Positions 1 through 50,049 of a stretch of DNA of 64,000 nucleotides are shown here, piece after piece. A model generated the notes under the pieces. The model was not told the origin of the DNA, did no database searches, and saw only the letters and a list, made by a program, of their open reading frames with translations. The stretch is taken from NCBI GenBank assembly GCA_964634935.1, contig CAZWJT010000001.1, forward strand, positions 16,203 through 80,202. Direction: 5' to 3'. Position 1 is the stretch's first letter. Each line of letters opens with the position of its first letter. This DNA comes from an uncultured Planctomycetia bacterium. GTDB taxonomy: Bacteria > Omnitrophota > Gorgyraeia > Duberdicusellales > Duberdicusellaceae. The translations under genes were made by a program, and so were the position numbers.

Positions 1-46
1 TTCCTTTCTGATTCGCTTGCAATTGCGCTAAAGAAATTTTTTTCAT
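1..46 (-). CDS. N-terminal fragment of an unidentified CDS that runs off the window (MKKISLAQLQANQKG...)
   Basis: ATG at 44-46 on the minus strand, preceded by an AAAGGGGAAC ribosome-binding-like motif. The frame stays open to the window edge. Too short to assign a function. Confidence 0.3.
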   Translation of the reverse strand, partial: MKKISLAQLQANQKG

Positions 47-121
47 GAGTTCCCCTTTATCGTTCGACTACTTGCTCTGAAACTTTACCAACAAAAACAT
101 ACGCACAGATTGCCAACCCTG

Positions 122-628
122 CTAATTATTTTTCCCGAATGCCCTAGGATTTTTCTCCACTATCTCCGCTGATTTGGTTAATTCCTCGAGAATATGCTGC
201 GCATCTTCACGAGATAAGAGCGGAATAGGATCTGCTGATCGCAATCTAGATAAAAAAGAACCTTTTAGAAAACGCATGGAAAAATAGACCTTGCTTCCAC
301 GCATATAGGTTTTTGGGGTTGGCCGCGGATAGGAAAACATGAAAGTTTTAAGTTGAATTGAACACTTTGGTTTTAGATAAATCTGTAATTCATTTTCTTC
401 ATGGAAAATATTATAATCCCATCCGAATTTACGCGTTTGATACATACCACTTAAACAAAGCGTCATACCGAAGAACCGAGATATAACTTTTGGCATTTCA
501 AGAAACTGCGAAAAAGCGCTAAAGCTTTGAATCGCCCTATTTCTCTGGCGTTTAAGCCAGTAAACAGCAAAAATGCAAACAAAACCAAGAAGAACTAAAT
601 GATAGAGATTTTTCGGACACATATACAA
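122..628 (-). CDS. hypothetical membrane-anchored protein
   Basis: 168-aa ORF with an N-terminal hydrophobic segment (LVLLGFVCIFAVYWL). No recognisable motif. Confidence 0.35.
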   Translation of the reverse strand: MYMCPKNLYHLVLLGFVCIFAVYWLKRQRNRAIQSFSAFSQFLEMPKVISRFFGMTLCLSGMYQTRKFGWDYNIFHEENELQIYLKPKCSIQLKTFMFSYPRPTPKTYMRGSKVYFSMRFLKGSFLSRLRSADPIPLLSREDAQHILEELTKSAEIVEKNPRAFGKNN

Positions 629-725
629 ATCGGATTTGGTAGTGTATATGATATCATAAATAACGGAAGGATAAATAAAAAAAGGCTACCACTAAAAGAC
701 AGCTCTAGAGAAACAAAAATAGTTT

Positions 726-1146
726 TCAAGATTGACAATCAAGCCAGGCTTTAACTTTATCCTCAATCTGTTTCCTGATCACCCTTATCTTACGCAATCT
801 CTCGCCCTCTGATCCCGTAAAACTTGAAGGATCCTGAAATCCCCAATGAAGCCGTTCCCCTTTACCCGGGAACACCGGACAAGCCCCAGATTGCGACTCA
901 TCGCAGACCGTAATCACATAATCGTATTGTTTACCCTGCTTATAGAAATCAAAAACACTCTTGGTCTTATTTTTCGAGATATCTATGCCGACTTCCTTCA
1001 TAGCCCCAACCACAATAGGATTGAGCTTGCCCGGCTCAAGACCGGCGCTTTCCACCTCAAAGCGATCACCTCCATATTTCTTCAAGAATGCCTCTGCCAT
1101 CTGCGAGCGCGCAGAGTTGTGAATACATACAAACAAAACCTTTTTC

Positions 1147-1154
<8 letters not shown>
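726..1154 (-). CDS. arsC: arsenate reductase, LMW-PTP/thioredoxin-coupled type
   Basis: Starts [16 protein letters not shown], the CX5R(S) P-loop of the low-molecular-weight phosphatase family. Downstream Cys residues present. 142 aa. Overlaps the ACR3 gene by 8 nt. Confidence 0.85.
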
Positions 1155-2247
<1,093 letters not shown>

Positions 2248-2260
2248 TTACTCTCCTTCC

Positions 2261-2947
2261 CTAAAACAACTTCAAGATATAAATTCCGGAATAATATAAG
2301 CCAACGAGAATAAAAATAACCCCGGTGATCCTGCGGGTATAAAATTCCAGCTTCGTGATTTTATGGAACCAATGGCTCATCGATGTCACTCCCAGCGCAA
2401 CAGCAACAGCGAAACCCAGCACCGGAAGTCCTGTCCCTATACCATAGATAAACGGCAATATCGTTCCGGCTTTGCTATTAAGCGCCAATGGAATAAGACT
2501 CCCGAAGAATAACGCCGCCGAGACAGGACAAAACGCTAAAGCAAATATAACCCCCAAAAGGAAAGCGCCGGGAGCACCCGACTCCACAAGTTTATTGTGG
2601 TGCTTTTGAGACAGTGTCACGCCGGGCAATTTTATCGTGATAACTTCCAACAAAAACAATCCTGTAATTATCAAAAGAGGCCCTAATGCCTTAACCATGT
2701 ATTTCTGCAAAAACTGCGCAACTTGCGGAACGCTTAACAGCGAACCGATAATGATCCAGCCGAGAACAGCGTAAGCAACCATCCTGCCGAGCGTATAGGC
2801 GAGCCCTGAAATAAACACCATAAACGGATGAGCTATCTTCTTTGAAAGAAATGATACCGCCGCAATATTTGTGGCTAAAGGGCATGGGCTGATTGACGTC
2901 AATATTCCAAGCCAAACGGCTGAACCTAAAGCGATTAAAAACTCCAT
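2261..2947 (-). CDS. ccdA: CcdA/DsbD-family transmembrane thiol:disulfide electron transporter
   Basis: 228 aa, about 6 TM segments. SPCPLA motif in TM1 and a second Cys (FCPVSAALFF), typical of the DsbD transmembrane-domain family. Its start overlaps the stop of the upstream thioredoxin-like gene (TAATG). Confidence 0.75.
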   Translation of the reverse strand: MEFLIALGSAVWLGILTSISPCPLATNIAAVSFLSKKIAHPFMVFISGLAYTLGRMVAYAVLGWIIIGSLLSVPQVAQFLQKYMVKALGPLLIITGLFLLEVITIKLPGVTLSQKHHNKLVESGAPGAFLLGVIFALAFCPVSAALFFGSLIPLALNSKAGTILPFIYGIGTGLPVLGFAVAVALGVTSMSHWFHKITKLEFYTRRITGVIFILVGLYYSGIYILKLF

Positions 2948-3366
2948 TATTGCGTATCCTTCATAAATGTATTTAATTCACCAGTCACATAATCCATAAA
3001 CTTTTGCTTATTGCGGGCAAGCTCCCAGATCTTATCAAGATTCTTCGATTTAGCTTCCTTGCCGTCTTTGACCAGCGAAAGAATAAGCGACTTGGTGTAC
3101 AGCTTATAGTCATCTACAAAATGCTCATTGCCCCGGTCCTCAACGTTTACCGCCTTAAACTCAAGTCTGCCCGAAGTGAGAGCATCTTTAAAATTCACCT
3201 CGATTGCCTCTCTGGAATACTTCTCCATGTTGGTGCAAGTGACACACCGAAATGATCCATGGAAATAATAAACGATGACTTTCGCTTGCGGACTTGATTG
3301 GGCTAAAGCGAAGGAACCGGTGCTAATTGCCGCAACAACCGCAAGAACCTGAATTATTTTTCTCAC
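2947..3366 (-). CDS. exported thioredoxin-fold protein with CxxC (CVTC) motif
   Basis: The track ORF runs to 3399. I prefer a GTG start at 3364-3366 because AGGAGG lies 5 nt upstream of it. That start gives the signal peptide M-RKIIQVLAVVAAISTGSFALA/QS. CVTC redox motif in a thioredoxin-like context (VIVYYFHGSFRCVTC). Confidence 0.55.
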   Translation of the reverse strand: MRKIIQVLAVVAAISTGSFALAQSSPQAKVIVYYFHGSFRCVTCTNMEKYSREAIEVNFKDALTSGRLEFKAVNVEDRGNEHFVDDYKLYTKSLILSLVKDGKEAKSKNLDKIWELARNKQKFMDYVTGELNTFMKDTQ

Positions 3367-3604
3367 ATCCGCCTCCTGAAAGGATTGTTTTGATCTCATT
3401 CTTACTTAAGACTTTCCCGGATGAAACTACCTTGCCATCAATAGCCAATCCGGGCGTCATCATGACACCGTATGCGGTAATTTTATCGATATCCGTGACC
3501 TTACCGATCTCGGCTTGAATGTTAAGTTCTTTAATAGCTTCCTCGGCGTTCGCCGTAAGCTGTTTGCATTTAGGGCACCCGACACCCAATATTTCAATCT
3601 TCAT
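3323..3604 (-). CDS. small thioredoxin-family protein (redox-active disulfide protein 2 type) with a C-terminal Cys-rich tail
   Basis: Real start is MKIEILGVGCPKCK with GGAGG 6 nt upstream; the first 37 codons of the track ORF are upstream read-through. CPKC active site and YGVM.TP..AIDGKVV core. Extra tail GGGCEKNNSGSCGCCGN. Confidence 0.7.
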   Translation of the reverse strand: MKIEILGVGCPKCKQLTANAEEAIKELNIQAEIGKVTDIDKITAYGVMMTPGLAIDGKVVSSGKVLSKNEIKTILSGGGCEKNNSGSCGCCGN

Positions 3605-3716
3605 ATCCCGCCTCCATCTTAACTTTAACCATTGTTTAATCAGAGTAAATATCTTTAGCCCTACCGCACTAAAGAATACGTAGCACAATCCCGTATTTCC
3701 ACAATATTGGCACATA

Positions 3717-4889
3717 TCATTTAACTATTGCTCCAAAAATCATTCCGCTTATCGTCGCCATAATGACAACGAGTGCCACGTATATAATTGTTTTTTTGGT
3801 ACCGATAACTCCTCTTATAACCAGCATACTCGGCAAGCTCAGCGCAGGCCCGGCCAAGAGAAGCGCTAACGCAGGCCCTTTACCCATTCCTGATCCGATC
3901 AATCCCTGCAAGATCGGAATCTCGGTAAGCGTGGCAAAATACATGAATGCCGCTACAATCGATGAGAAGAAATTCGCCCGCAAAGAATTGCCTCCGACCA
4001 ACGCCTCTACCCAGCGGGAAGGAATAACGCCTTCGTGACCGACCCTTCCCAAGAGAAACCCGGAAATCAGAACACCGCCCAAAAGAAGCGGAAGTATTTG
4101 CAAAGCGAAAGCCCATGTTGCCGAAGTCCACTCTTTTAATTCATCCTTTTTGAACCACTTGATAAGCATTGCCGCCAAGCTAACAAGAGAGAAACCTGCG
4201 ATCCACCATTTATATTGATAAATGAACGACCATGCGCCATGATCGCCTTCTAATGGCTTGCCCCAATTAGCGAAAACCAGTATTACCACCATAGAGGCAA
4301 AATAAAGAACGGCCTGTGCTAATGAGCGGGTTTCTTTTACCTCTCCGACGTTAAAATCGCCGTTTGCATGCCGAGCTCTCTCTTTTTTTAGAAATATCAA
4401 ATGCATCAATAATCCGATTACGACGCTAAAAACCACAGCCCCGATAGCTCGAGCCAATCCTAATTGCCAGCCAAGGATCCGGGCCGTCAAGATAATCGCC
4501 AAAACATTGATTGCGGGTCCGGAATAAAGGAAGGTGATCGCAGGCCCAAGCCCTGCGCCGCGTTTGTAGATGCCGGAAAACAAAGGCAAAACCGTACACG
4601 AACATACCGCCAAGATCGTCCCGGACACGGACGCCACACTGTAGGAAAGAAACTTATTCGCCTTCGCGCCGAAATACTTCATAACCGACGCTTGACTGAC
4701 AAACACAGAAATGGCTCCCGCAATAAAGAACGCCGGAACAAGACACAAAAGCACGTGCTCCCGGGCGTACCATTTAACAAGCGCCAAAGCTTCAAAGACA
4801 GCGTTGGTAAAACGAAAATTCTCAACCGGCAGGTAAAAACAGCCTAAGAATATGGCGGCAATATATAAAAATTTCTTCCATTCTTTCAT
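3717..4889 (-). CDS. COG0701/DUF318-type membrane permease (ArsP-like)
   Basis: 390-aa polytopic membrane protein with an intramembrane CSC motif (AVCSCTVLPLF), as in ArsP-type organoarsenical permeases. Embedded in the ars cluster. ATGA overlap with the upstream regulator gene. Confidence 0.65.
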   Translation of the reverse strand: MKEWKKFLYIAAIFLGCFYLPVENFRFTNAVFEALALVKWYAREHVLLCLVPAFFIAGAISVFVSQASVMKYFGAKANKFLSYSVASVSGTILAVCSCTVLPLFSGIYKRGAGLGPAITFLYSGPAINVLAIILTARILGWQLGLARAIGAVVFSVVIGLLMHLIFLKKERARHANGDFNVGEVKETRSLAQAVLYFASMVVILVFANWGKPLEGDHGAWSFIYQYKWWIAGFSLVSLAAMLIKWFKKDELKEWTSATWAFALQILPLLLGGVLISGFLLGRVGHEGVIPSRWVEALVGGNSLRANFFSSIVAAFMYFATLTEIPILQGLIGSGMGKGPALALLLAGPALSLPSMLVIRGVIGTKKTIIYVALVVIMATISGMIFGAIVK

Positions 4890-5194
4890 CTTTTAATCGC
4901 CTTCCCTACGACAGAACAACAGCCCCCCTCAATGCGTATTGCCTTAATATTCACCAGTGCGTCAGTCACTTTTTTATGGGCTGATGCTAGAATACGCGAA
5001 ATCGTCGATTGATGTATTTTCATCTGCTTAGCTATCTTTCCCTGCTCATACCCCTCAAGATATGAAAGGCGCATTGCCTCAAATTCATCTAAAGTAAGGA
5101 TAACACCTTCAAGCTCGCTTTTTGACTTGCATTGAGGCCGGAAACAACGCTCTCCCGGCTCACATGTTACCCATCTTGTCTTTTTAGGCCTCAT
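4886..5194 (-). CDS. DUF134/UPF0251-type small DNA-binding protein (sigma-70 region-4-like HTH) with N- and C-terminal Cys clusters
   Basis: 102 aa. HTH segment GKIAKQMKIHQSTISRILASA. Cys residues at VTCEPGERCFRPQC and GGCC. First gene after a strong promoter, with GGAGAAGG ribosome-binding site. Confidence 0.6.
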   Translation of the reverse strand: MRPKKTRWVTCEPGERCFRPQCKSKSELEGVILTLDEFEAMRLSYLEGYEQGKIAKQMKIHQSTISRILASAHKKVTDALVNIKAIRIEGGCCSVVGKAIKR

Positions 5195-5210
5195 CCTTCT
5201 CCGCGTAGTT

Positions 5211-5240
5211 ATGCATATATATGCATTATAGTAGAATGCA
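5211..5240. promoter_or_regulatory. candidate operator: perfect 16-bp palindrome ATGCATATATATGCAT (5211-5226) and overlapping TGCATT-N7-AATGCA (5222-5240)
   Basis: Read directly from the sequence. The palindromes overlap the -10 element and the +1 region of the promoter above. Confidence 0.45.
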
Positions 5241-5252
5241 TTCCTTTGTCAA
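5225..5252 (-). promoter_or_regulatory. near-consensus sigma-70 promoter for the ars-like operon (minus strand TTGACA-16 nt-TATAAT)
   Basis: The reverse complement of 5225-5252 reads TTGACAaaggaatgcattctacTATAAT. It lies 30 nt upstream of the ATG at 5194. Confidence 0.5.
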
Positions 5253-5296
5253 GATCGATATGAGCAGAAATTATTTTCCGGCCTGGGAGAAAAGGC

Positions 5297-7903
5297 TTAT
5301 TTTTTACGCTTCGCCAAGAGGCTTGAATCGCTGGAAAAACAAAGTACTTTTTGGGTTATAACATCAGCCATAATTTTTAGCTCTTTTTCTGAAGCATCAT
5401 ATACTTTAATAACTTTGTCATATTTTTTGTAGGAAGGAAGGTACCGCCCCAAACCATCAAAATAGGTGTTGAAAATATCAGATCGCACACAGACGCCCGG
5501 CTTACCTGGAAACAACGCCAAGTAAAAGATGCCGGCCTCGACTAAATCCTGGAAAAAATGGGTTCCGTAGGAAAGTTCGGGCATAACATTACCTTCTGAA
5601 AAAGCAATTTCTCCCAAAACAGAAACATTATTAATCTCGGAAAAAGAAACCGGAACTCCAAGCGAAGGAGTACTCGTCCCCCATCGTCCAGGCCCCAAAA
5701 GCATGGTTACTTTTTCTTCCGTATGCCGTATTTGCTTATTCAATTCTCCTATCGCACGGGCGATATCATACCGGGACGATTGAGACTTCAAAGCACAGTA
5801 AGCTTTTGGATCAACATAAATAATCCGATGAAGATTCAAAGATACATTGCCCCCGATGAAATTACCGTGTGACTGGAAAAGAATCTTTTCCCGATCTATT
5901 GTTTCCGGAATATCAACCTTGTTCCCTAAACCTTTCGTCTGCATGGGCCTGCACTGTAAAAGATTCAGCTGAAATCCGCCGTTCCTTTTGAAATTCACCG
6001 TAAACTCTATATCGACAGGATATTGATAAGTTTCCTGAAGAACCCGAAGAAGCTTCCGCATTGTTTCCCCAAATCTAGTCTTGGAAAAAAGCTGATCAAA
6101 AGTAATAATCCAGCCTCTTTTATCTTGCTCTAAGCTATCCGCCTCTCCTTCAATCCCGGGTCCCTTTGTAGCAATCAAGTCTAAATCCAAGTCCAGTCCT
6201 TCATCGAGTAAATGACCCAAAAAAACTGTCTGCAGGGTATTTTCCCGAACATTCAACACATCAACATCATGCTGAGAGAACCTTTGTGCCTCTTCGATGT
6301 CGCCATGGACTTTCAGCAATGGGTCATCTAAGGCTACAATGCGGGGATAATCACCTTCAACGCGGTTTACAGCCCGGGTGCCAAGACCGAGTACCAACCG
6401 TAACATTCCTGCTTTGGGGTCTAAATCTTTCTTCCAAACAAAAGCATTATACGAAATCCCGACGCCGGCAACGTCCGGGAAAAAATACTTCCCATGAAAA
6501 ATACCTGAAACACGTTGTACTAGTAAAGCCATCTGCTCGTCAAGTTTATCTAAACCGCGTTGTAAGCGATAAGCCAAAGCATCTTCGTTTAAAGTGGAAG
6601 CATATACTTGCAGGATAGCACGGACGAACTTTTCATATCGTTCTTCCGGCGTGCCTTGATTCACCAAAAAAATGCTTTCGTATTTTCCCGCGAAAGCATT
6701 GCCGTAACCATCTTCTAGCAAACTACTTGACCGAACAATAATCGGCGATTGACCAAAATAATCAATCAAATGTTGAAATTGTTCTTTGAGCTCCTCTGGG
6801 AAAAAACCTCGCAATAGCTTTTCTCGCAAAGTACGAGCAACCGTAAAATACCCTTCCTGTGTTTTCTGTTCCATACGTTCATTCCACCAACCGTTCTCTA
6901 CAATATAGGTATAGAAAACATCTGAACCAATATAGAAAGAATCATGTGGTTCAAAAAACTTTTCTACCTGTAAAGACTTCTCTCGCGCAAGTATATTTCG
7001 AGCAATCAACATCCCAACAGACTTTCCTCCAATGAAACCTGTCCCGATCATCCGTGATTTAATCGTAAGAAAATCTTCTATCGTCAGATTTTCCCTAGCA
7101 AGCTTCAGTATTTTTTCATCACGGGAAATAATCAATTTTGACAGCTGGTCAATTACCCGCGCTTTTTCCTTGCGCGATATTCCTTTTTGACCGGCAAGAT
7201 CTTCCGCTTTCATAAAAATCCTATCCCAACTGTCCAATTTTCGTTTTGTACTCTTTGTTCCCTGCTTAAACACATTTGAAAATAAACGAGCGGTATCAAC
7301 ACTACTCGCAATAGGAACAAAACACCCTTTCTTTTTTACATGAGGCAAAAACATCGCTGGGGTATATCGATTCCAGACTTTCAGCGGGTGCACATAATGA
7401 TGACCTTGGTAACGATAGACGTCAATGAGAAGTTGCGTCGTATCACGAATACGAGCAATCGTCTTGAAAGAGTGGCTATAGCGGAAAATCGAAAAATAGG
7501 CAATGGTGTCAAGTTCAAAAAGGAATGGGCAGGTTATTTTAAAAAAATTTCCGATCATTAAATCATTGGACCAGACAGAAAGCAGATCAGAAAGACAATC
7601 AAAAACATAAAAAACACCTTTACCTTCTCTCCTGATAATGCCGTTGAGCGTGGTAGAAAAAGATTCAAATCCAAGCGAAGCATTGACTTCGTAAAAAACC
7701 GATACCTGTGATTTCTCAAAAAGAGGTTTATGATTGGCAAAGCGTATATAAACAACGCGTCTTTTTTCTTTGAGGGAATTACGCACAAAGGGAGCAGTAA
7801 GATCCCGGTAGTCATGCATAGAATCAATCTGCCAGACGACGTTATCACCCAGTTGTAAACCAGTGAGAACTTTATCTAAACTCAGATCTCCGGTACTAAC
7901 CAT
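5297..7903 (-). CDS. PEP/pyruvate-binding (PPDK_N, ATP-grasp) domain protein with a large unknown N-terminal domain
   Basis: 868 aa. The central region has FIGGKSVGMLIARNIL ... IIVRSSSLLEDG ... GPGRWGT, typical of the nucleotide-binding domain of PEP synthase / pyruvate phosphate dikinase. No His swivel domain or PEP-utilising C-domain is evident. Confidence 0.6.
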   Translation of the reverse strand: MVSTGDLSLDKVLTGLQLGDNVVWQIDSMHDYRDLTAPFVRNSLKEKRRVVYIRFANHKPLFEKSQVSVFYEVNASLGFESFSTTLNGIIRREGKGVFYVFDCLSDLLSVWSNDLMIGNFFKITCPFLFELDTIAYFSIFRYSHSFKTIARIRDTTQLLIDVYRYQGHHYVHPLKVWNRYTPAMFLPHVKKKGCFVPIASSVDTARLFSNVFKQGTKSTKRKLDSWDRIFMKAEDLAGQKGISRKEKARVIDQLSKLIISRDEKILKLARENLTIEDFLTIKSRMIGTGFIGGKSVGMLIARNILAREKSLQVEKFFEPHDSFYIGSDVFYTYIVENGWWNERMEQKTQEGYFTVARTLREKLLRGFFPEELKEQFQHLIDYFGQSPIIVRSSSLLEDGYGNAFAGKYESIFLVNQGTPEERYEKFVRAILQVYASTLNEDALAYRLQRGLDKLDEQMALLVQRVSGIFHGKYFFPDVAGVGISYNAFVWKKDLDPKAGMLRLVLGLGTRAVNRVEGDYPRIVALDDPLLKVHGDIEEAQRFSQHDVDVLNVRENTLQTVFLGHLLDEGLDLDLDLIATKGPGIEGEADSLEQDKRGWIITFDQLFSKTRFGETMRKLLRVLQETYQYPVDIEFTVNFKRNGGFQLNLLQCRPMQTKGLGNKVDIPETIDREKILFQSHGNFIGGNVSLNLHRIIYVDPKAYCALKSQSSRYDIARAIGELNKQIRHTEEKVTMLLGPGRWGTSTPSLGVPVSFSEINNVSVLGEIAFSEGNVMPELSYGTHFFQDLVEAGIFYLALFPGKPGVCVRSDIFNTYFDGLGRYLPSYKKYDKVIKVYDASEKELKIMADVITQKVLCFSSDSSLLAKRKK

Positions 7904-8094
7904 TCATATTCTCTTGTATGATCATTTTTATGAATACCCCACGAAATGCCAGTGTACTCTGCAGGGTTTTTCCCTGGACATCATTGTAGCATAAAAACTA
8001 TACCAAAAATAAGTTTTGAATGTATAAAAGTATTTTAAAAAAGATACCGGAATATCAAAGAAGATAAAATCGTAACTGGAAAAACAAGGGTTAT

Positions 8095-8134
8095 TACAAA
8101 AAACGCTAGCCAGATTTACCCTGACTAGCGTTTT
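8095..8134 (-). terminator. intrinsic terminator-like hairpin downstream of gdhA
   Basis: AAAACGCTAGCCAG / CTGACTAGCGTTTT inverted repeat (9 of 10 bp paired, plus A:T extension). On the minus strand it is followed by TTTTTTGTAATAA. Confidence 0.45.
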
Positions 8135-8153
8135 GCTCTCTCAGAAAAATTTT

Positions 8154-9491
8154 CTATACGACTCCTTGTGCTAACATTGCGTCAGCCACTTTGACAAACC
8201 CAGCGATATTCGCGCCTTTTACGTAATTTATGTATTTATCGTCTTTCCCATAACGCACGCAATTTTCGTGGATTGCAATCATGATATCGTGAAGCTTGCT
8301 GTCGACTTCCTCGCGCGACCATGACATCCGCATGCTGTTCTGGCTCATTTCCAAGCCTGACGTAGCAACACCACCGGCATTTGCTGCTTTACCCGGGGCA
8401 TATAAAATCTTTGCTTTCTGAAATATTTCTATCCCTTCAGGCGTGGTAGGCATATTCGCGCCCTCTCCTATCGCGATACAACCACTCTTGACAAGTACCT
8501 TTGCGTCTTCGCCTGAAATTTCATTCTGAGTGGCCGAGGGGAAAGCAACATCGCATTGTACCTGCCAGGGTTTTTTCTTCTCAAAATATTTGCATTTGAA
8601 TTCTTTTGCACACTCTTTAATACGCCCGCGGCGGTTGTTCTTTAGATCCAAGACGCATTTTAACTCCTTGTGATCAATCCCACCCTCATCATAGATAAAA
8701 CCGTCCGAATCCGATAAAGTAACGACTTTTGCTCCCAGTTGCAAAAGTTTCTCAACCGTATACTGCGCAACGTTTCCTGAACCGGATACTGCACAAACTT
8801 TACCTTTTAGTGAGTCACCCCTGGTTTTTAACATTTCCTCCACAAAATAAACGCACCCATATCCTGTTGCTTCCGGCCGAATGAGACTTCCGCCCCAGTT
8901 CAAACCCTTACCGGTAAGAACTCCCGTAAATTCATTTCTCAATCTTTTGTATTGGCCAAACATGTACCCAATTTCACGCCCACCGACACCGATATCTCCA
9001 GCCGGAACGTCTGTGTCCGGGCCAATATGCCGGAAAAGTTCACTCATAAAACTCTGGCAAAAACGCATCACTTCATTATCCGATTTTCCTTTTGGATCAA
9101 AATCAGAACCGCCTTTTCCGCCTCCCATAGGAAGCGTAGTCAAGCTGTTCTTTAGAACCTGTTCAAAAGCCAGAAATTTAAGAATGCTCAAATTAACGCT
9201 TGGATGAAACCGAAGGCCGCCTTTATATGGCCCTATGGCGCTGTTCATCTCAATGCGATAGCCCTTATTAATTTGGACTTCTCCTTTATCGTCAAGCCAA
9301 GGAACCCGAAACATAATCACCCGTTCCGGTTCAGTCATCCTTTCCAGAATTTTAGCATCACGGTATTTTGGGTTTTTCTCAATGAATGCGTACAACGACT
9401 CAACAACTTCCCGCACTGCCTGATGAAATTCAGGTTCTCCCGGATTTTTGCGCATAACATCATTCATGATTGCCTGAATCTTGCTTTCCAT
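8154..9491 (-). CDS. gdhA: NADP-specific glutamate dehydrogenase
   Basis: 445 aa. GPYKGGLRFHP, LPMGGGKGGSDFDPKG and VPAGDIGVGGREIG are hallmark Glu/Leu/Phe/Val dehydrogenase motifs. Confidence 0.9.
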   Translation of the reverse strand: MESKIQAIMNDVMRKNPGEPEFHQAVREVVESLYAFIEKNPKYRDAKILERMTEPERVIMFRVPWLDDKGEVQINKGYRIEMNSAIGPYKGGLRFHPSVNLSILKFLAFEQVLKNSLTTLPMGGGKGGSDFDPKGKSDNEVMRFCQSFMSELFRHIGPDTDVPAGDIGVGGREIGYMFGQYKRLRNEFTGVLTGKGLNWGGSLIRPEATGYGCVYFVEEMLKTRGDSLKGKVCAVSGSGNVAQYTVEKLLQLGAKVVTLSDSDGFIYDEGGIDHKELKCVLDLKNNRRGRIKECAKEFKCKYFEKKKPWQVQCDVAFPSATQNEISGEDAKVLVKSGCIAIGEGANMPTTPEGIEIFQKAKILYAPGKAANAGGVATSGLEMSQNSMRMSWSREEVDSKLHDIMIAIHENCVRYGKDDKYINYVKGANIAGFVKVADAMLAQGVV

Positions 9492-13041: not shown

Positions 13042-13812
13042 CTATTTACCTTCTTGTGAAAAAATACCCTGCAGATCCTTCTTGGTTTTATCAAGAGATG
13101 CTTTGGCCGATGTTTCAATCTCTTTTACTGAAGATTGCACGGCTTTCGCGCTTGCATCCAAAGCCTGCGTAACTGCCTGTTGCGTTTGATTCACCTGTTC
13201 TGAAATATCGAATGCCGCGAATTTTGTTATACCAATACGCGAAAGAATTTTTTTAAGAATTTGCCCTGATAGCGCCGAGGGATTTGTCACGTCTTTAAAC
13301 GTCTCTTCGATATCCGGATGAAATTCCATTGTTTTCTTGCCCAGGGGAGCAAAAAAAGATTTATATCCAACTTTCCCAATTTTTACGGAGAATTCATCAA
13401 TTTTTACTTCCGGAGATTTGCCAGTGCCTGGTTTGGGCATCAGGAGGGTCAATGCATTTAGGTTCAATTTTCCCTGTTCATTCAAAACAACCAAAAGCTC
13501 TTGGACTTCGATTGCTATTTTATTCAAGTGCACGCGGTTTCCAAAAAATCCTCCCAGATCATAATCGACAAAAACCCTGGGAATCTCAATCATCATCGCT
13601 CCAGGAAAACCGTCGGGATTAAAAATCTTTAGGGAATTAATCTCAAAGGTATGATTAAATCCCATATTGACTTTCTCGATCTCAACCGGCACTCCTGCCA
13701 GCGCTTCAACCCCTTTTACGATTACTTTCTTGATGATAAAGTTTCGCCCCACCATGACAATCGCAATCAAACAAAAGAATAGCACGAAAAGACCAATCAA
13801 TATTTTTTTCAT
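13042..13812 (-). CDS. hypothetical N-terminally membrane-anchored protein
   Basis: Start chosen at MKKILIG (GGAGGG 5 nt upstream). One TM segment followed by a soluble domain of unknown function. Confidence 0.4.
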   Translation of the reverse strand: MKKILIGLFVLFFCLIAIVMVGRNFIIKKVIVKGVEALAGVPVEIEKVNMGFNHTFEINSLKIFNPDGFPGAMMIEIPRVFVDYDLGGFFGNRVHLNKIAIEVQELLVVLNEQGKLNLNALTLLMPKPGTGKSPEVKIDEFSVKIGKVGYKSFFAPLGKKTMEFHPDIEETFKDVTNPSALSGQILKKILSRIGITKFAAFDISEQVNQTQQAVTQALDASAKAVQSSVKEIETSAKASLDKTKKDLQGIFSQEGK

Positions 13813-37565: not shown

Positions 37566-38198
37566 CTACTCGTATAACAGGTTGTCAATTTGAACACGCT
37601 TCACATAAATAATCTCACAAGAACCCATCCCTGTGTCTGATCTACTTAAACTCGTATTCCACCATACTGGATTTTCCCCTTGAAATCCTTTAATGTTAAC
37701 AAGATAGCCCTCGATTCGCATCTTCTGGTTAATGCGCGCAGCACACATCGCCCGATACACGCTTTCATTAGCAGGAATTGTATGGTTATTAGAAGAATGA
37801 GTAATGATATCTTCATTCTGGAAAGGACTCTCTGGGGTATATTGCCAATAATACCATCGATTATTCTGCCAATAGCGGACGAAACGCTTGGCTTCCGACT
37901 CAGCCAGCTTCCCCCAAACAAAAGCAACATCAAACGGAGCTAAACATGCTTCCCAGCTCGAAGAGTACTTTTTTTTGCCCACTACTACGCCAGAAAGAGC
38001 ATAGCGCGCAACTGGCAGAATTTGAAATTCTTCCGTTCCGCATCGAACAGTCAATGTTTCACCGTCAAACGGTTCTTGACAAGGATCCTCGTAGATATCA
38101 ATGATTTGGGAAACTTCTTCTTTTCCCTTATGATTACCACACCCAGAAACTATCAAACCAATGGAACAGAACCCCAGAAAAACAACCAGACTTTTCAT
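37566..38198 (-). CDS. hypothetical lipoprotein
   Basis: Signal peptide with lipobox LIVSGC. 210 aa, Trp/Tyr-rich. Confidence 0.45.
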   Translation of the reverse strand: MKSLVVFLGFCSIGLIVSGCGNHKGKEEVSQIIDIYEDPCQEPFDGETLTVRCGTEEFQILPVARYALSGVVVGKKKYSSSWEACLAPFDVAFVWGKLAESEAKRFVRYWQNNRWYYWQYTPESPFQNEDIITHSSNNHTIPANESVYRAMCAARINQKMRIEGYLVNIKGFQGENPVWWNTSLSRSDTGMGSCEIIYVKRVQIDNLLYE

Positions 38199-42853: not shown

Positions 42854-45218
42854 CCACTCTTACAGCTTCGACGCAATCTTTCGCATATTCTGCGCCGATG
42901 CTTTGAGCATACCTTTGCGTCACGACTGCTCCGCCAACCACAAAAAAACAATCGATACCTTCTTTCCGAGCCGCTTGAATTACTTCATCCATCTTCACCA
43001 TTGTCGTTGTCATGAGAGCCGAGAGTCCGACGACCTTTGGTTTATGCTGCTTTATTGCCTTGATAATTGTGCCTGTTGAAACATCCTTTCCTAAATCCAC
43101 CACCTCAAAACCATGATTCTTAAGCATCAAGGAAACTAAATTTTTTCCAATATCATGAATATCACCTTCAACGGTAGCTAAAATAACAACGGCTTTGTAG
43201 GCATTTCCCGCATGCTCACGACGCAGTAAAGGATTTAAATGCTCTAATGCTTTCTTTACCACTTCAGCGCTTGCAATAAGCTGAGGAAGAAAATATTCTT
43301 TCCGGTCAAACAAATGACCGACATTTGTGATAGCCGGAATTACAACCGTGTTAACCAAAGCAATGGCCGAGATACCCTCTGCCAAAGCCTGCTTCACAAA
43401 CTTCAAAATTTCTTCCTTATTCCCCTGGCAGATCGCGGAAAAAATTTGATCATGAGAAGAAGTTTTTCCCGACTGAATGTGTTTTGTTCCGTCTTTCTTA
43501 AAATGAACAACATACCTCTGAGCGTGAGTGTCCCGTCCAAGCAAAAGTTCGGCGGCCTTCTTGGTGCAAACAAGTTCTTCGCTCAAAGGATCAGCGATGA
43601 CCGCTGAAAGACCCTTCTGAACCGCCATAGAAAGAAAAGAAGAATTGACCCAAGCGCGCCCAGGCAATCCAAATGAAATATTTGAAAGACCAATCACTGT
43701 ATGTGCTTTCAGTTTTTGCGTGCACCATTCGATAGTCTCTAGCGCTTCAGAAGCAGCATCTGCGCATGACGCAACACTCAAAGCCAAAGCATCAATGAAA
43801 ATATCGTCTGTAGTAAAACCGTGTTTCCGGGCAACCTCCAATACCTTTTCGATAACGTCCTTACGTTGATTGAAGGTTTCCGGAATTTTCTTCCCAGCCA
43901 CCGGCAAAAGAATAAACATAGCTCCGTACCGCCTTGCTAAAGACAAAAACCTGTTTAACTTCGATTTTTCCCCTGAAATTGAATTAATCAACGCTCTCCC
44001 TGGATAAATACGCAAGGCTTGTTCCAGGGCTTCAAAATTCGTTGTGTCCAAAACCAAAGGCAATGGACTGATTACCGATAATAAGCGGACGGCAGAAATT
44101 AAACTCTTCTCCTCAGATATCCCAGCCGCCCCCACATTAACATCCAGCAGATGTGCTCCTTTTTCTCTCTGAGCGTATGCCTGTGTACGTATATAATTTG
44201 TTGAGGAATTCCTCAACTCTGCCTGGAATGCCTTTTTACCAGTTGGATTGATTCGTTCTCCGATAAGTATAATTTCTGGGGTATTTTTGAACAAAAACCC
44301 CTCTCGGGATGAGCTGAGAGCAGAAAGAGAGATGCGTTTATTCTTTACTGGCCTAACGCCTTCTAAATGTTCTTTTAAGGCTGCTATATGTCCAGGAGTC
44401 GTACCACAACACCCTCCAATCATCCGCGCTCCGGATTGAACAATATGTACAGCTTGATGAGCAAAATCTTGCTTATTCATAGTAAATACTGCCTGCCCGT
44501 TGATTAAATGCGGGATATCAGCATTGGGTTTAGCAATGAGAGGCACAAGTGAATAGGGTTGCGCTTGCTGCATACACACAAGCATATCTTCTGGCCCAGT
44601 TGAACAATTACACCCCACAGCATGGGCCCCAAGACTCTGCAGAGTAATCAACGCAGAAAGCATTGTTGTTCCGTTTAAAGTACGGCCGTTCTTCTCGTAG
44701 GTCATCGTAACACAGGTGAATTTTTTCGTGAGTTCCTGTGCTGCAAGAAGTGCTGCTCGAGCTTCCTGGATATCGATCATCGTCTCAATCACCAAAAGAT
44801 CCACTCCGCCCGCAAGCAAACCTTCAATCTGTTCACGAAAAACCAGAACTGCCTCTTCAAACGGAAAGTCTCCGAACGGTTCAACAAATCTTCCGGTAGG
44901 ACCGATATCTCCCGCGACGAGACACCTGCCGTTGGCAGATTTACGTGCAAGCAGTGCTAAATTACGGTTAACAGCCTTAACGTCTTTACGGGAAAAATGA
45001 TCCAACTTACAACGGTTAGCGCCAAACGTGCAAGTATAAAGCACATCAGACCCAGCTCGAACATACGCATCATGAATGGTTTGAAGCACCTTGGGGTTTT
45101 CCAAACACCACAGTTCCGGACAAACTCCGGAGCGCATACCGTGTTTCTGCAACTCAGTTCCCATAGCACCATCAAGAAGAACAACTCGTTTTTGAAGAAG
45201 CTCTTGAATTTTTTCCAT
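42834..45218 (-). CDS. metH: cobalamin-dependent methionine synthase, short form (Hcy-binding, pterin-binding, B12 cap and B12-binding domains; no activation domain)
   Basis: N-terminal homocysteine S-methyltransferase domain (LLDGAMGTEL), GCCGTTP zinc site, pterin-binding barrel, and DIHDIGKNLV (DxHxxG cobalamin motif). Only 794 aa. Confidence 0.9.
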   Translation of the reverse strand: MEKIQELLQKRVVLLDGAMGTELQKHGMRSGVCPELWCLENPKVLQTIHDAYVRAGSDVLYTCTFGANRCKLDHFSRKDVKAVNRNLALLARKSANGRCLVAGDIGPTGRFVEPFGDFPFEEAVLVFREQIEGLLAGGVDLLVIETMIDIQEARAALLAAQELTKKFTCVTMTYEKNGRTLNGTTMLSALITLQSLGAHAVGCNCSTGPEDMLVCMQQAQPYSLVPLIAKPNADIPHLINGQAVFTMNKQDFAHQAVHIVQSGARMIGGCCGTTPGHIAALKEHLEGVRPVKNKRISLSALSSSREGFLFKNTPEIILIGERINPTGKKAFQAELRNSSTNYIRTQAYAQREKGAHLLDVNVGAAGISEEKSLISAVRLLSVISPLPLVLDTTNFEALEQALRIYPGRALINSISGEKSKLNRFLSLARRYGAMFILLPVAGKKIPETFNQRKDVIEKVLEVARKHGFTTDDIFIDALALSVASCADAASEALETIEWCTQKLKAHTVIGLSNISFGLPGRAWVNSSFLSMAVQKGLSAVIADPLSEELVCTKKAAELLLGRDTHAQRYVVHFKKDGTKHIQSGKTSSHDQIFSAICQGNKEEILKFVKQALAEGISAIALVNTVVIPAITNVGHLFDRKEYFLPQLIASAEVVKKALEHLNPLLRREHAGNAYKAVVILATVEGDIHDIGKNLVSLMLKNHGFEVVDLGKDVSTGTIIKAIKQHKPKVVGLSALMTTTMVKMDEVIQAARKEGIDCFFVVGGAVVTQRYAQSIGAEYAKDCVEAVRVVDGLVA

Positions 45219-48873: not shown

Positions 48874-50049
48874 TCATTCTGCTTTGCTAAAAACCCGTTT
48901 CAGTAACAGAGTTCCATAGCTGCCCCGGGGAAGCGAAAAACTCAATATCAACTTTTTCTTCTGAGGGTATAGTTCGTCATCGAATACCTGCGCAAAAAGA
49001 TTCTCAGGGATAACGGAAATGCTTCGTGGTATCGACTTAAAAAATGCCTGCCGCAGAGAACGAATATTCAATAATGAAGAACGCATCCCAAACTCTGCCA
49101 AAGTTTCAGAATATACTTCCCTCAAAAGCTGGTCACTAATATTGCTTTTTGCGCCAAGAGTAGGCAAAATAAGCGCTAAGAAAAAATCCTGTTTCTCTGG
49201 TTGAAGATTTCCATAAAAGACATAATCACCAACTATTCCGGGGTATCGCCTGAAAGAATTCTTGAAAAATTTCTGGATAAATTTTTTGGTTGTTATGTTC
49301 CAAATATGCGCCTGATAGCAAGCATAATAAAGAGACATTTCTTCTTTCGAGATTTGCTGTAAAAGAGGCAGAAAATCTCGCGGGTGTTTCATGAGATACT
49401 GGAAACTCTTTTTCTCAAGCCAACTTTCAGCACGTTCCAAACACTCAGCCCATTTCTGCCAGTGATGAAAAAAGAAATCTTTCCGTATCCTTTCTGATTT
49501 GGTATCCCGGGTAGATACTCTCGTAAGATGAATCTTTAAGGCCCCCCCATAGTGCTTTTTCAGAACTTTCTCCGCGAAAAACCCGCTCCGTTGATCAAAG
49601 CTGCCAAAACGCTGATCATCAAAATAGTTCGGATAGCCTATCTTTTTAATTATTTCAAGCTCATCCAAAACACTCTGAATGGAATCACGATGAAGTTTCC
49701 GGACAACGATAGTAAAATCATTCTTGATAATCAGGTCCGGTCCTATCGGCCGCTCAAGAAATCCTTGAAAAGTTGCGCTGTATCCTCTTCCTTTAAGGTT
49801 GAACGGATAATTTCCTTGAAGCGAGATGTATTGGGAAGTACAGCCATGCCTATCTTTCCGGCCCGCATAAGAAAAACTCGCAAGCGGGATTTTCATCTTC
49901 CGGGCAAGTTCTTTTAGAAGATCGATCGTATTCCAACCGCATTTTTCCAATTGGAAAACACTATAGCCGCCAGAATTCCCAAAACAAGCGTTAATCTTTT
50001 CCCGTACGATAAAATCTTCTGGTTTAACTTTTAAGGTAAGCTGAACCAT
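48874..50049 (-). CDS. truD: tRNA pseudouridine(13) synthase
   Basis: YAGRKDRHGCTSQ (catalytic Asp block) and PNYFDDQRFG are the TruD signatures. 391 aa. Confidence 0.8.
   Translation of the reverse strand: MVQLTLKVKPEDFIVREKINACFGNSGGYSVFQLEKCGWNTIDLLKELARKMKIPLASFSYAGRKDRHGCTSQYISLQGNYPFNLKGRGYSATFQGFLERPIGPDLIIKNDFTIVVRKLHRDSIQSVLDELEIIKKIGYPNYFDDQRFGSFDQRSGFFAEKVLKKHYGGALKIHLTRVSTRDTKSERIRKDFFFHHWQKWAECLERAESWLEKKSFQYLMKHPRDFLPLLQQISKEEMSLYYACYQAHIWNITTKKFIQKFFKNSFRRYPGIVGDYVFYGNLQPEKQDFFLALILPTLGAKSNISDQLLREVYSETLAEFGMRSSLLNIRSLRQAFFKSIPRSISVIPENLFAQVFDDELYPQKKKLILSFSLPRGSYGTLLLKRVFSKAE

Follow-up and report, generated by a model that had tools for sequence, protein, structure and literature searches.

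Introduction

The ars operons are a textbook case of metalloregulation. They were still described in 2025 as being commonly under the control of ArsR-family repressors (PMC11868830), and the DNA analysed here, a stretch of 64,000 nucleotides (nt) of contig CAZWJT010000001.1 (hereafter, the window), contains an ars operon in which a protein of another family seems, as far as can be judged from the sequence, to replace the usual ArsR repressor. The first of the seven genes of this operon encodes a protein of 102 amino acids (aa) belonging to the family DUF134 (UPF0251, COG1342, PF02001), and the region ahead of this gene (positions 5208–5252) is probably the autoregulated promoter-operator of the whole operon, at which the DUF134 protein would act as a repressor released by trivalent arsenic. 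Computational support comes from the sequence elements of the promoter, the operon content, the conservation of the site, the covariation between operator and protein, and a set of clade-specific cysteines.

ArsR proteins bind As(III) through three cysteine thiolates and are thereby released from the operator. Their As(III) sites consist of three cysteines and have independent origins, at different places in the protein; in sites of types 2 and 3, a vicinal cysteine pair lies at or near the dimer interface, and the cysteines of the site are Cys95-96-102 in AfArsR and Cys15-16-55′ in CgArsR (PMC11868830). The DNA-binding domain of the DUF134 protein points to another described system, the repressor DeoR of Bacillus subtilis, whose left half-operator reads ATTGAAC-AAAA-TTTCAAT and which dimerises via a β-strand following the helix-turn-helix (HTH). 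In the DeoR-OL18 structure, obtained at 3.7 Å, R39 is reported to contact G4 and T14, and R34 to contact T12 (PMC11229326). As for DUF134 itself, searches under its four names revealed no functional study in the searchable literature, which leaves out most papers of subscription journals, and a PDB search revealed no DUF134 structure.

Promoter and Probable Operator

More than 2,000 relatives of the DUF134 protein were found, mostly in metagenome-assembled genomes of Candidatus Omnitrophota, and some in bins labelled Elusimicrobia, Planctomycetes, Deltaproteobacteria and others. The window was compared with 160 related loci, 80 from reference genomes (L001–L080, 770 kb in all) and 80 from metagenomes; 158 of them were analysable for operator conservation, 147 had a clear site and were used for covariation, 79 promoters were aligned, and gene contexts were counted in the 132 loci for which 1.5 kb or more of downstream sequence was available. 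The elements of the promoter region are as follows.

5252–5247, minus strand: −35 hexamer TTGACA; TTGAC lies 26–27 nt upstream of the palindrome in 52 of the 79 aligned promoters
5246–5231, minus strand: spacer of 16 nt
5230–5225, minus strand: −10 hexamer TATAAT; at the same position, related loci have TATAAT (51/79) or TATTAT (11/79)
5211–5226: predicted core operator of class I, the perfect 16-bp palindrome ATGCAT-ATAT-ATGCAT, i.e., ATGCATATATATGCAT, reaching from within the −10 hexamer across the predicted +1 region
5208–5229: predicted extended operator of 22 bp (GTTATGCATATATATGCATTAT on the plus strand), with 9 of 11 pairs symmetric
5236–5241: third ATGCAT hexamer, in the promoter spacer, which creates the inverted repeat 5222–5240 and is not kept in close relatives
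5195–5202, minus strand: purine-rich ribosome-binding region GGAGAAGG, abutting the ATG, with GGAG-like motifs at the equivalent place in related loci

Read along the minus strand, the region consists of TATCGATC, TTGACA, AAGGAATGCATTCTAC, TATAAT, GCATATATATGCAT, AACTACGCGGAGAAGG and the ATG. The elements described in the earlier note on this DNA are all present, namely the promoter TTGACA-16 nt-TATAAT 30 nt upstream of the DUF134 gene on the minus strand (5224–5195, separating the −10 hexamer from the ATG at 5194), the perfect palindrome at 5211–5226, overlapping the −10 element and the predicted +1 region, and the inverted repeat TGCATT-N7-AATGCA at 5222–5240. The promoter has the two hexamers and the 16–18-nt spacing of a sigma-70 promoter; it matches the consensus at 12 of 12 positions, its hexamers are kept in related loci, and a consensus scan of positions 1–9000 together with a full-window scan found no other 12/12 match in the 64 kb. 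From promoters of this type, transcription starts 5–9 nt past the −10 hexamer. Two 11/12 matches occur elsewhere in the window, at 37588 and 11977 (minus strand), TTGACA-17-AATAAT and TTGACA-17-TAAAAT, respectively. The −10 hexamer and the palindrome share two bases, which end the former and begin the latter, and the promoter-proximal flank of the 22-mer is taken up by TATAAT.

All the dyads stem from the self-complementary hexamer ATGCAT, present three times, at 5211, 5221 and 5236 (10 and 15 nt apart). This hexamer is not enriched in the window (15 copies vs 20.5 expected); ATGCATATATATGCAT occurs once, and there are three perfect 16-bp palindromes against 1.4 expected from first-order Markov simulations, the other two being TTGAGGAATTCCTCAA (44201–44216) and TTTTCCAATTGGAAAA (49943–49958). 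A 16-bp palindrome by itself is unexceptional, and the case therefore rests on position and conservation: its significance lies in its placement on a unique consensus promoter and in its conservation in about 150 related loci.

The 16-bp dyad ATG[C/A]A[C/T]-N4-[A/G]T[G/T]CAT was found in 147 of the 158 loci; in nearly every locus, it lies 29–37 nt ahead of the start codon and is preceded by TTGACA and a −10 hexamer. In an alignment of the promoters anchored on the dyad, the only positions of high information content are the −35 and −10 hexamers, the dyad and the AAC flank following it. Since the spacer and the upstream DNA have diverged, the conservation of the dyad is, on the evidence of this alignment, selective and not a result of recent common ancestry. 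In the 770 kb of L001–L080, the relaxed pattern TG[CA]A[CT]-N4-[AG]T[GT]CA occurs 73 times, always at DUF134 promoters, and never elsewhere, against approximately 10 off-promoter occurrences expected, while the same half-sites at other spacings (N0–N15) gave 4–16 occurrences each; the absence of off-promoter matches may reflect selection against stray repressor sites. The window contains one relaxed match outside the promoter, TGCATTTAGGTTCA, starting at 13453.

Three operator classes can be distinguished, class I (ATGCAT..ATGCAT, as in the window), class II (ATGCAC..GTGCAT) and class III (ATGAAC..GTTCAT), and successive classes differ by one change mirrored in both half-sites. Class III loci have their −10 hexamer 4 nt upstream and a dyad of the full 22 bp, GTTATGAAC-N4-GTTCATAAC. 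Among all the protein columns, the highest mutual information with the operator class was shown by residue 62, which is the first residue of the recognition helix (H-Q-S-T-I-S-R). Gln62 accompanies T6/A11 (26/26 loci) and Arg62 accompanies C6/G11 (121/121), and the next residue covaries with operator positions 4 and 13, Ser63 with C4/G13 (63/67) and Pro63 with A4/T13 (74/80). On a neighbour-joining tree built without residues 61–65, residue 62 requires two Fitch steps and residue 63 three; isolated switches are represented by L034, which has Q62 and a class I operator inside an R62 clade, and L156, which has S63 and a class II operator inside a P63 clade. In protein–DNA recognition, glutamine tends to pair with adenine and arginine with guanine, so the direction of the covariation is chemically sensible. 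The fixed promoter position in 147 of 158 loci and the symmetric changes that follow the DUF134 recognition helix bear out the proposal, made in the earlier note, that the 16-bp palindrome is an operator, and the protein that it serves is very probably DUF134.

The same proposal for the inverted repeat at 5222–5240 did not hold. The third ATGCAT, which creates this repeat, is missing in L002 and L003, the DUF134 proteins of which are 95–96% identical to that of the window, and the promoter spacers of the closest relatives are T-rich and lack it; the resulting arrangement, ATGCAT-N9-ATGCAT, with 15 nt from start to start, was rejected as an operator against the conserved N4 and 10 nt. Extra half-site-like hexamers occur in 5 of the 79 promoters at variable offsets (−28 to −11), which does not exceed chance by a rough estimate assuming uniform base composition, and the comparison suggests that the third hexamer is probably fortuitous. 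An element acting at the RNA level was also rejected: an Rfam search gave no match, even for the longest plausible leader, folding is not better than that of shuffled sequence (z = −0.29), and with the predicted transcription start falling within the palindrome, the left arm would not be part of the transcript.

The ars Operon and Related Loci

The operon behind the promoter comprises the following genes, ending in a hairpin.

4886–5194, minus strand: DUF134/UPF0251 gene, 102 aa, predicted autorepressor (Pfam PF02001)
3717–4889, minus strand: ArsP_1-family permease (Pfam PF03773, E = 5e-77)
3323–3715, minus strand: MTH895/ArsE-family thioredoxin-like protein, domain from residue 38, with a Cys-rich C-terminal tail CGCCGN
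2947–3399, minus strand: ArsF-family protein (NCBIfam: nitrophenyl compound nitroreductase subunit; NF040494, 112.6 bits vs cut-off 60)
2261–2947, minus strand: ArsG-family transporter (NCBIfam: aromatic aminoarsenical efflux permease; DsbD_2 fold; NF040495, 282 bits vs 200; Pfam DsbD_2)
1147–2247, minus strand: ACR3 arsenite efflux transporter (TIGR00832, 408.6 bits vs cut-off 282.8)
726–1154, minus strand: ArsC-like arsenate reductase of the low-molecular-weight phosphatase type (Pfam LMWPc; TIGR02691, 121.6 bits, below 174.3)
685–703, minus strand: terminator-like hairpin with a T-run, 3′ of arsC

The seven genes, in the order DUF134, arsP-like, arsE-like, arsF, arsG, acr3 and arsC, all lie on the minus strand, neighbouring genes overlap or have short junctions, and the probable end of the operon is the hairpin at 685–703. 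Genes for arsenite efflux and arsenate reduction are co-directional behind one promoter, and by its gene content this is a genuine ars operon, as the earlier note had supposed; NCBIfam identifies the ArsE-like thioredoxin, ArsF, ArsG, ACR3 and ArsC, and Pfam the ArsP_1 permease. The ATG of the permease gene overlaps the stop codon of the DUF134 gene (ATGA), which suggests translational coupling. The permease scores below the NCBIfam cut-offs of its nearest named families (a Cu/Zn efflux transporter and SaoE). As the domain of the ArsE-like protein begins at residue 38, its real start is probably the Met at 3604; the ArsE-like and ArsF open reading frames overlap by 77 nt (3323–3399) in different frames, and their gene starts are uncertain. 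A tblastn search with two ArsR queries found nothing in the window.

The gene context is preserved in the related loci. Genes of the ars type follow on the same strand in 129 of the 132 loci, and in 119 of them ArsP, ArsF or ACR3 starts no more than 700 nt from the DUF134 start codon, the first downstream gene being ArsP in 107 loci, ACR3 in 8 and ArsF in 4. A linked ArsR as the true regulator was considered and rejected, ArsR-like sequences being present in only 4 of the 160 loci and nowhere in the window. The commonest extra gene encodes an ArsM-like S-adenosylmethionine methyltransferase (27 loci, e.g., L002:6826-7608); it stands between arsP and the thioredoxin gene in about one third of the first 80 loci and does not belong to the operon of the window. 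In four loci, a CDF cation-efflux gene is inserted.

Several other features of these loci can be mentioned. Cys-rich tails ending in CGCCGN or GGCCGN recur on several operon proteins, including the ArsE-like protein of the window (3323–3370) and the products of DGC-domain genes, which occur in 12 related loci, e.g., L043; these tails resemble the GGCC motif of the DUF134 protein and may, on this likeness, represent a shared arsenic-binding module. Proteins 90–97% identical to the ars proteins of the window (97% for ACR3) are encoded in bins labelled Planctomycetales, Deltaproteobacteria or Elusimicrobia (L043, L074, L073 and others), and such near-identity could be due to horizontal transfer of the whole cassette or to mis-binning. 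Upstream of the promoter, the minus-strand gene 5297–7903 encodes an 868-aa protein, the sole domain of which is PPDK_N (ATP-grasp), with scores far below all NCBIfam cut-offs for phosphoenolpyruvate synthase; this gene ends 102 nt ahead of the DUF134 start.

The DUF134 Protein

The product of the first gene clearly belongs to DUF134/UPF0251 (PF02001, 71.1 bits vs the gathering cut-off of 27, residues 2–91). Pfam and NCBIfam scans revealed DUF134, sigma-70 region 4 and a similarity to the DeoR N-terminus, and nothing else; the protein contains a sigma-70 region 4-like HTH with the recognition helix starting at Q62. The AlphaFold model (mean predicted local distance difference test score, pLDDT, 75.8; above 90 for residues 30–80) has a confident core of residues 30–88, composed of a strand (30–33), three helices (35–46, 51–58 and 62–82) and a second strand (85–88), directly followed by the GGCC motif.

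The protein has five cysteines, C11, C17, C22, C92 and C93, each of which is present in 153–158 of the 158 ars-type proteins. A search of 1.8 billion cluster representatives (50% identity) yielded 2,585 DUF134 clusters, and 141 representative clusters were compared; the pair C92-C93 is found in only about 6 of them, the best-scoring ones, while in the remaining clusters Gly occupies position 22 (115/141), and the prevailing residues are Tyr or Phe at position 17 and Tyr, Val or Phe at position 93. Outside the ars-linked clade, C11 is frequent as well. It appears from this comparison that C17, C22, C92 and C93 are an acquisition of precisely the clade whose genes stand first in ars operons. Because these cysteines are clade-specific and the As(III) sites of ArsR proteins are built of three cysteines, they suggest, by analogy, thiol-based sensing of As(III) or of trivalent organoarsenicals.

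Dyads or repeats with a CATATG core were also found upstream of DUF134 genes that are not linked to ars genes (L163:2830-2900, L164:2890-2960, L082:5880-5950 and L081:5940-5990). These elements are GTTATTGACATATGTCAATAAC in Clostridium butyricum, GTTATTGACATATGCCA in Subdoligranulum and TTGACATATGCCA...TGGCATATGTCAA in Peptoclostridium, and in the Escherichia coli IncC plasmid pEc78 (L081), TTGCATATGCCA and TAGCATATGCCA form a direct repeat. Some of the dyads contain a −35-like TTGACA, and flanks of the type GTTAT...ATAAC, as in the extended operator, are present as well. Such related palindromes suggest a family-wide operator, and the DUF134 family as a whole may be autoregulatory.

Proposed Mechanism and Alternative Explanations

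From these data, we infer a mechanism with a predicted transcription start, binding by a dimer, repression rather than activation, an arsenical inducer and an allosteric route to release. A dimer of the 102-aa protein would bind ATGCAT-N4-ATGCAT via the sigma-70 region 4-like HTH, occupying 5208–5229; residue 62 would read positions 6/11, residue 63 would influence positions 4/13, and the invariant R67 would read the invariant G3 and the partner at position 14. Since both the predicted start (approximately 5216–5220) and the last bases of the −10 hexamer fall within the site, the bound dimer would keep RNA polymerase from a promoter that is otherwise very strong. As(III) or a trivalent organoarsenical would be bound by the vicinal pair C92-C93 and one or more of C11, C17 and C22. 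This pair directly follows strand 85–88, a dimer interface by analogy with DeoR; because it adjoins this predicted interface, arsenic binding is proposed to alter the geometry of the dimer, leading to release of the DNA and induction of the operon. The repressor gene, being the first gene of the operon, would be induced too, which would make the circuit autoregulated.

Release by an arsenical is the part of this proposal with the most serious competitor. It is conceivable, if unlikely, that the DUF134 protein is indeed an autorepressor acting on the palindrome, and that its cysteines bind Zn or an iron–sulphur (Fe-S) cluster or form disulphides, the signal being redox or thiol stress, oxygen or a soft metal (Cd, Cu, Zn or Sb). 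Other DUF134 genes do stand beside genes for NifB/NifX-type cluster-binding proteins and Mrp/ORP Fe-S carriers, C11 is not confined to the ars-linked clade, the nearest NCBIfam relatives of the permease, both below cut-off, are a Cu/Zn efflux transporter and SaoE, and a CDF gene is present in four loci. However, the clade-specific cysteines occur exactly in the clade linked to ACR3, ArsC, ArsM, ArsF and ArsG, in eight loci the first downstream gene, within 700 nt of the DUF134 start codon, is that of ACR3 itself, the loci contain no other regulator able to confer an arsenic response, and a vicinal pair with a third cysteine is the recurrent design of As(III) sites in ArsR proteins (PMC11868830).

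Two further explanations concern the palindrome itself. The role of the DUF134 protein bound there might be that of an activator or of a sigma-like specificity factor, and not that of a repressor, in keeping with the resemblance of the DUF134 DNA-binding domain to sigma-70 region 4 and with the TTGACA inside the palindromes of non-ars DUF134 loci; this is regarded as very unlikely, since a promoter with a 12/12 match and a 16-nt spacer needs no activator, and the site lies over −10/+1 in classes I and II or over the start region in class III, where bound proteins normally occlude RNA polymerase. MerR-type activator sites have their dyad in a spacer of 19–20 nt, whereas here the spacer is 16 nt and the conserved dyad lies at −10/+1, and MerR-like activation was ruled out by both spacer length and position. 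The least probable explanation, and a highly improbable one, is that the palindrome is not a DUF134 site at all, being the site of another regulator, an RNA leader hairpin or a by-product of an AT-rich promoter. The near-chance number of 16-bp palindromes (3 vs 1.4) and the self-complementarity of ATGCAT, any two copies of which form a dyad, would agree with it, but about 150 loci have the palindrome at a fixed position between diverging flanks, both half-sites change symmetrically and covary with the DUF134 recognition helix, and a hairpin is disfavoured by the left arm lying outside the predicted transcript, by the leader z-score of −0.29 and by the lack of an Rfam match.

Several points count against the proposed arsenic-released DUF134 repressor. 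The N-terminal arm and the C-terminal tail, which carry the cysteines, are modelled with low confidence (pLDDT 44–68), and the five cysteines could bind Zn or an Fe-S cluster instead. The related loci all come from uncultured organisms. The switches of residues 62 and 63 represent few independent events, so shared ancestry explains part of the perfect covariation. The permease falls below the cut-offs of named families, so arsenic is not its sole conceivable substrate. The DeoR-OL18 contacts used for comparison are, according to the authors of that structure, of low confidence at 3.7 Å (PMC11229326).

A broader reading, which can be held with a little more confidence than doubt, would join the autorepressor proposal with the family-wide palindromes. 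DUF134 (about 2,600 clusters) would comprise small autoregulatory repressors that use a DeoR-like HTH on 22-bp GTTAT...ATAAC palindromes and whose specificity is readable from residues 62/63; one clade would have gained four cysteines and become a non-ArsR, arsenic-sensing ars repressor, with a wide distribution in Omnitrophota and further uncultured anaerobes, in which it takes the place of ArsR.

Comparison with Known Systems

Other DUF134 proteins, exemplified by those of pEc78, Peptoclostridium acidaminophilum and Clostridium butyricum, share with the protein of the window the PF02001 domain, the N-terminal M(x)RP(K/R) arm and the same HTH. NifB/NifX-like genes are neighbours of the DUF134 gene in both pEc78 and Peptoclostridium, in the latter together with MrpORP, while the C. 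butyricum gene has neither beside it; unlike the gene of the window, none of the three stands beside ACR3, ArsC or another ars structural gene. The proteins also differ in their cysteines: C22, C92 and C93 are missing from the other DUF134 proteins, and C17 from most of the family. The pair of DUF134 and NifB/NifX-like genes found in pEc78 recurs in 190 other Enterobacterales plasmids; it is widespread among conjugative plasmids from Klebsiella, Citrobacter and E. coli, where genes for Dps and for members of the ArsR/SmtB family lie nearby.

The HTH is clearly similar to the DNA-binding domain of B. subtilis DeoR (profile search against PDB, E = 4e-5; Foldseek, 42% identity over 40 residues, root-mean-square deviation 0.4 Å). 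The comparison was made with PDB structures 7bhy and 8r7y, the residue number in the window protein being that of DeoR plus 28. The geometry of the DeoR operator, TGAA-N6-TTCA, is that of the class III operator, and the class III DUF134 proteins and DeoR have a common motif, ISRPT.SR (I-S-R-P-T-F-S-R and I-S-R-P-T-V-S-R, respectively). R34 of DeoR corresponds to residue 62 of DUF134 and R39 to the invariant R67, while G4 of the DeoR operator corresponds to the invariant G3 and T12 to the covarying position 11. In the DUF134 model, the predicted strand 85–88 follows the HTH as the dimerisation strand of DeoR does. At the same time, DeoR has a sugar-phosphate-binding effector domain of about 250 aa, is a tetramer, binds a 39-bp operator at −60 to −21 and regulates nucleoside catabolism, whereas the DUF134 protein has only a basic, Cys-containing N-terminal arm and a short Cys-Cys tail, and its site is at −10/+1. 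The window protein has the N-terminal HTH of the SorC/DeoR family; with its 102 aa, it has no further domain, and it is not a SorC/DeoR repressor, because the sugar-phosphate-binding effector domain is missing.

The ArsR/SmtB winged helix (Pfam HTH_5/HTH_20) was not found in the DUF134 protein. The systems of R773 ArsR, AfArsR and CgArsR resemble the one proposed here in having a small repressor encoded by the first ars gene, a dyad overlapping the promoter, and autoregulation, which is predicted for DUF134; a thiol-based As(III) site with a vicinal cysteine pair near a dimer interface, comparable to those of AfArsR and CgArsR, is likewise predicted for DUF134 by analogy. The family, the fold (sigma-70 region 4-like HTH) and the operator sequence are different. 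If the proposal is correct, a different protein fold has converged on the task of ArsR, the vicinal-cysteine sensor included, and DUF134/UPF0251 receives what would be, as far as the searchable literature goes, its first functional assignment. It would also explain the control of ars genes in candidate phyla without a linked ArsR, provide a compact 102-aa candidate scaffold for arsenic biosensors, and offer a defined operator with a two-residue recognition code, open to testing in E. coli with synthetic DNA. The layout of promoter and operator is ordinary, and functionally it is the ArsR paradigm; the new part is the family of the regulator and its readable recognition code.

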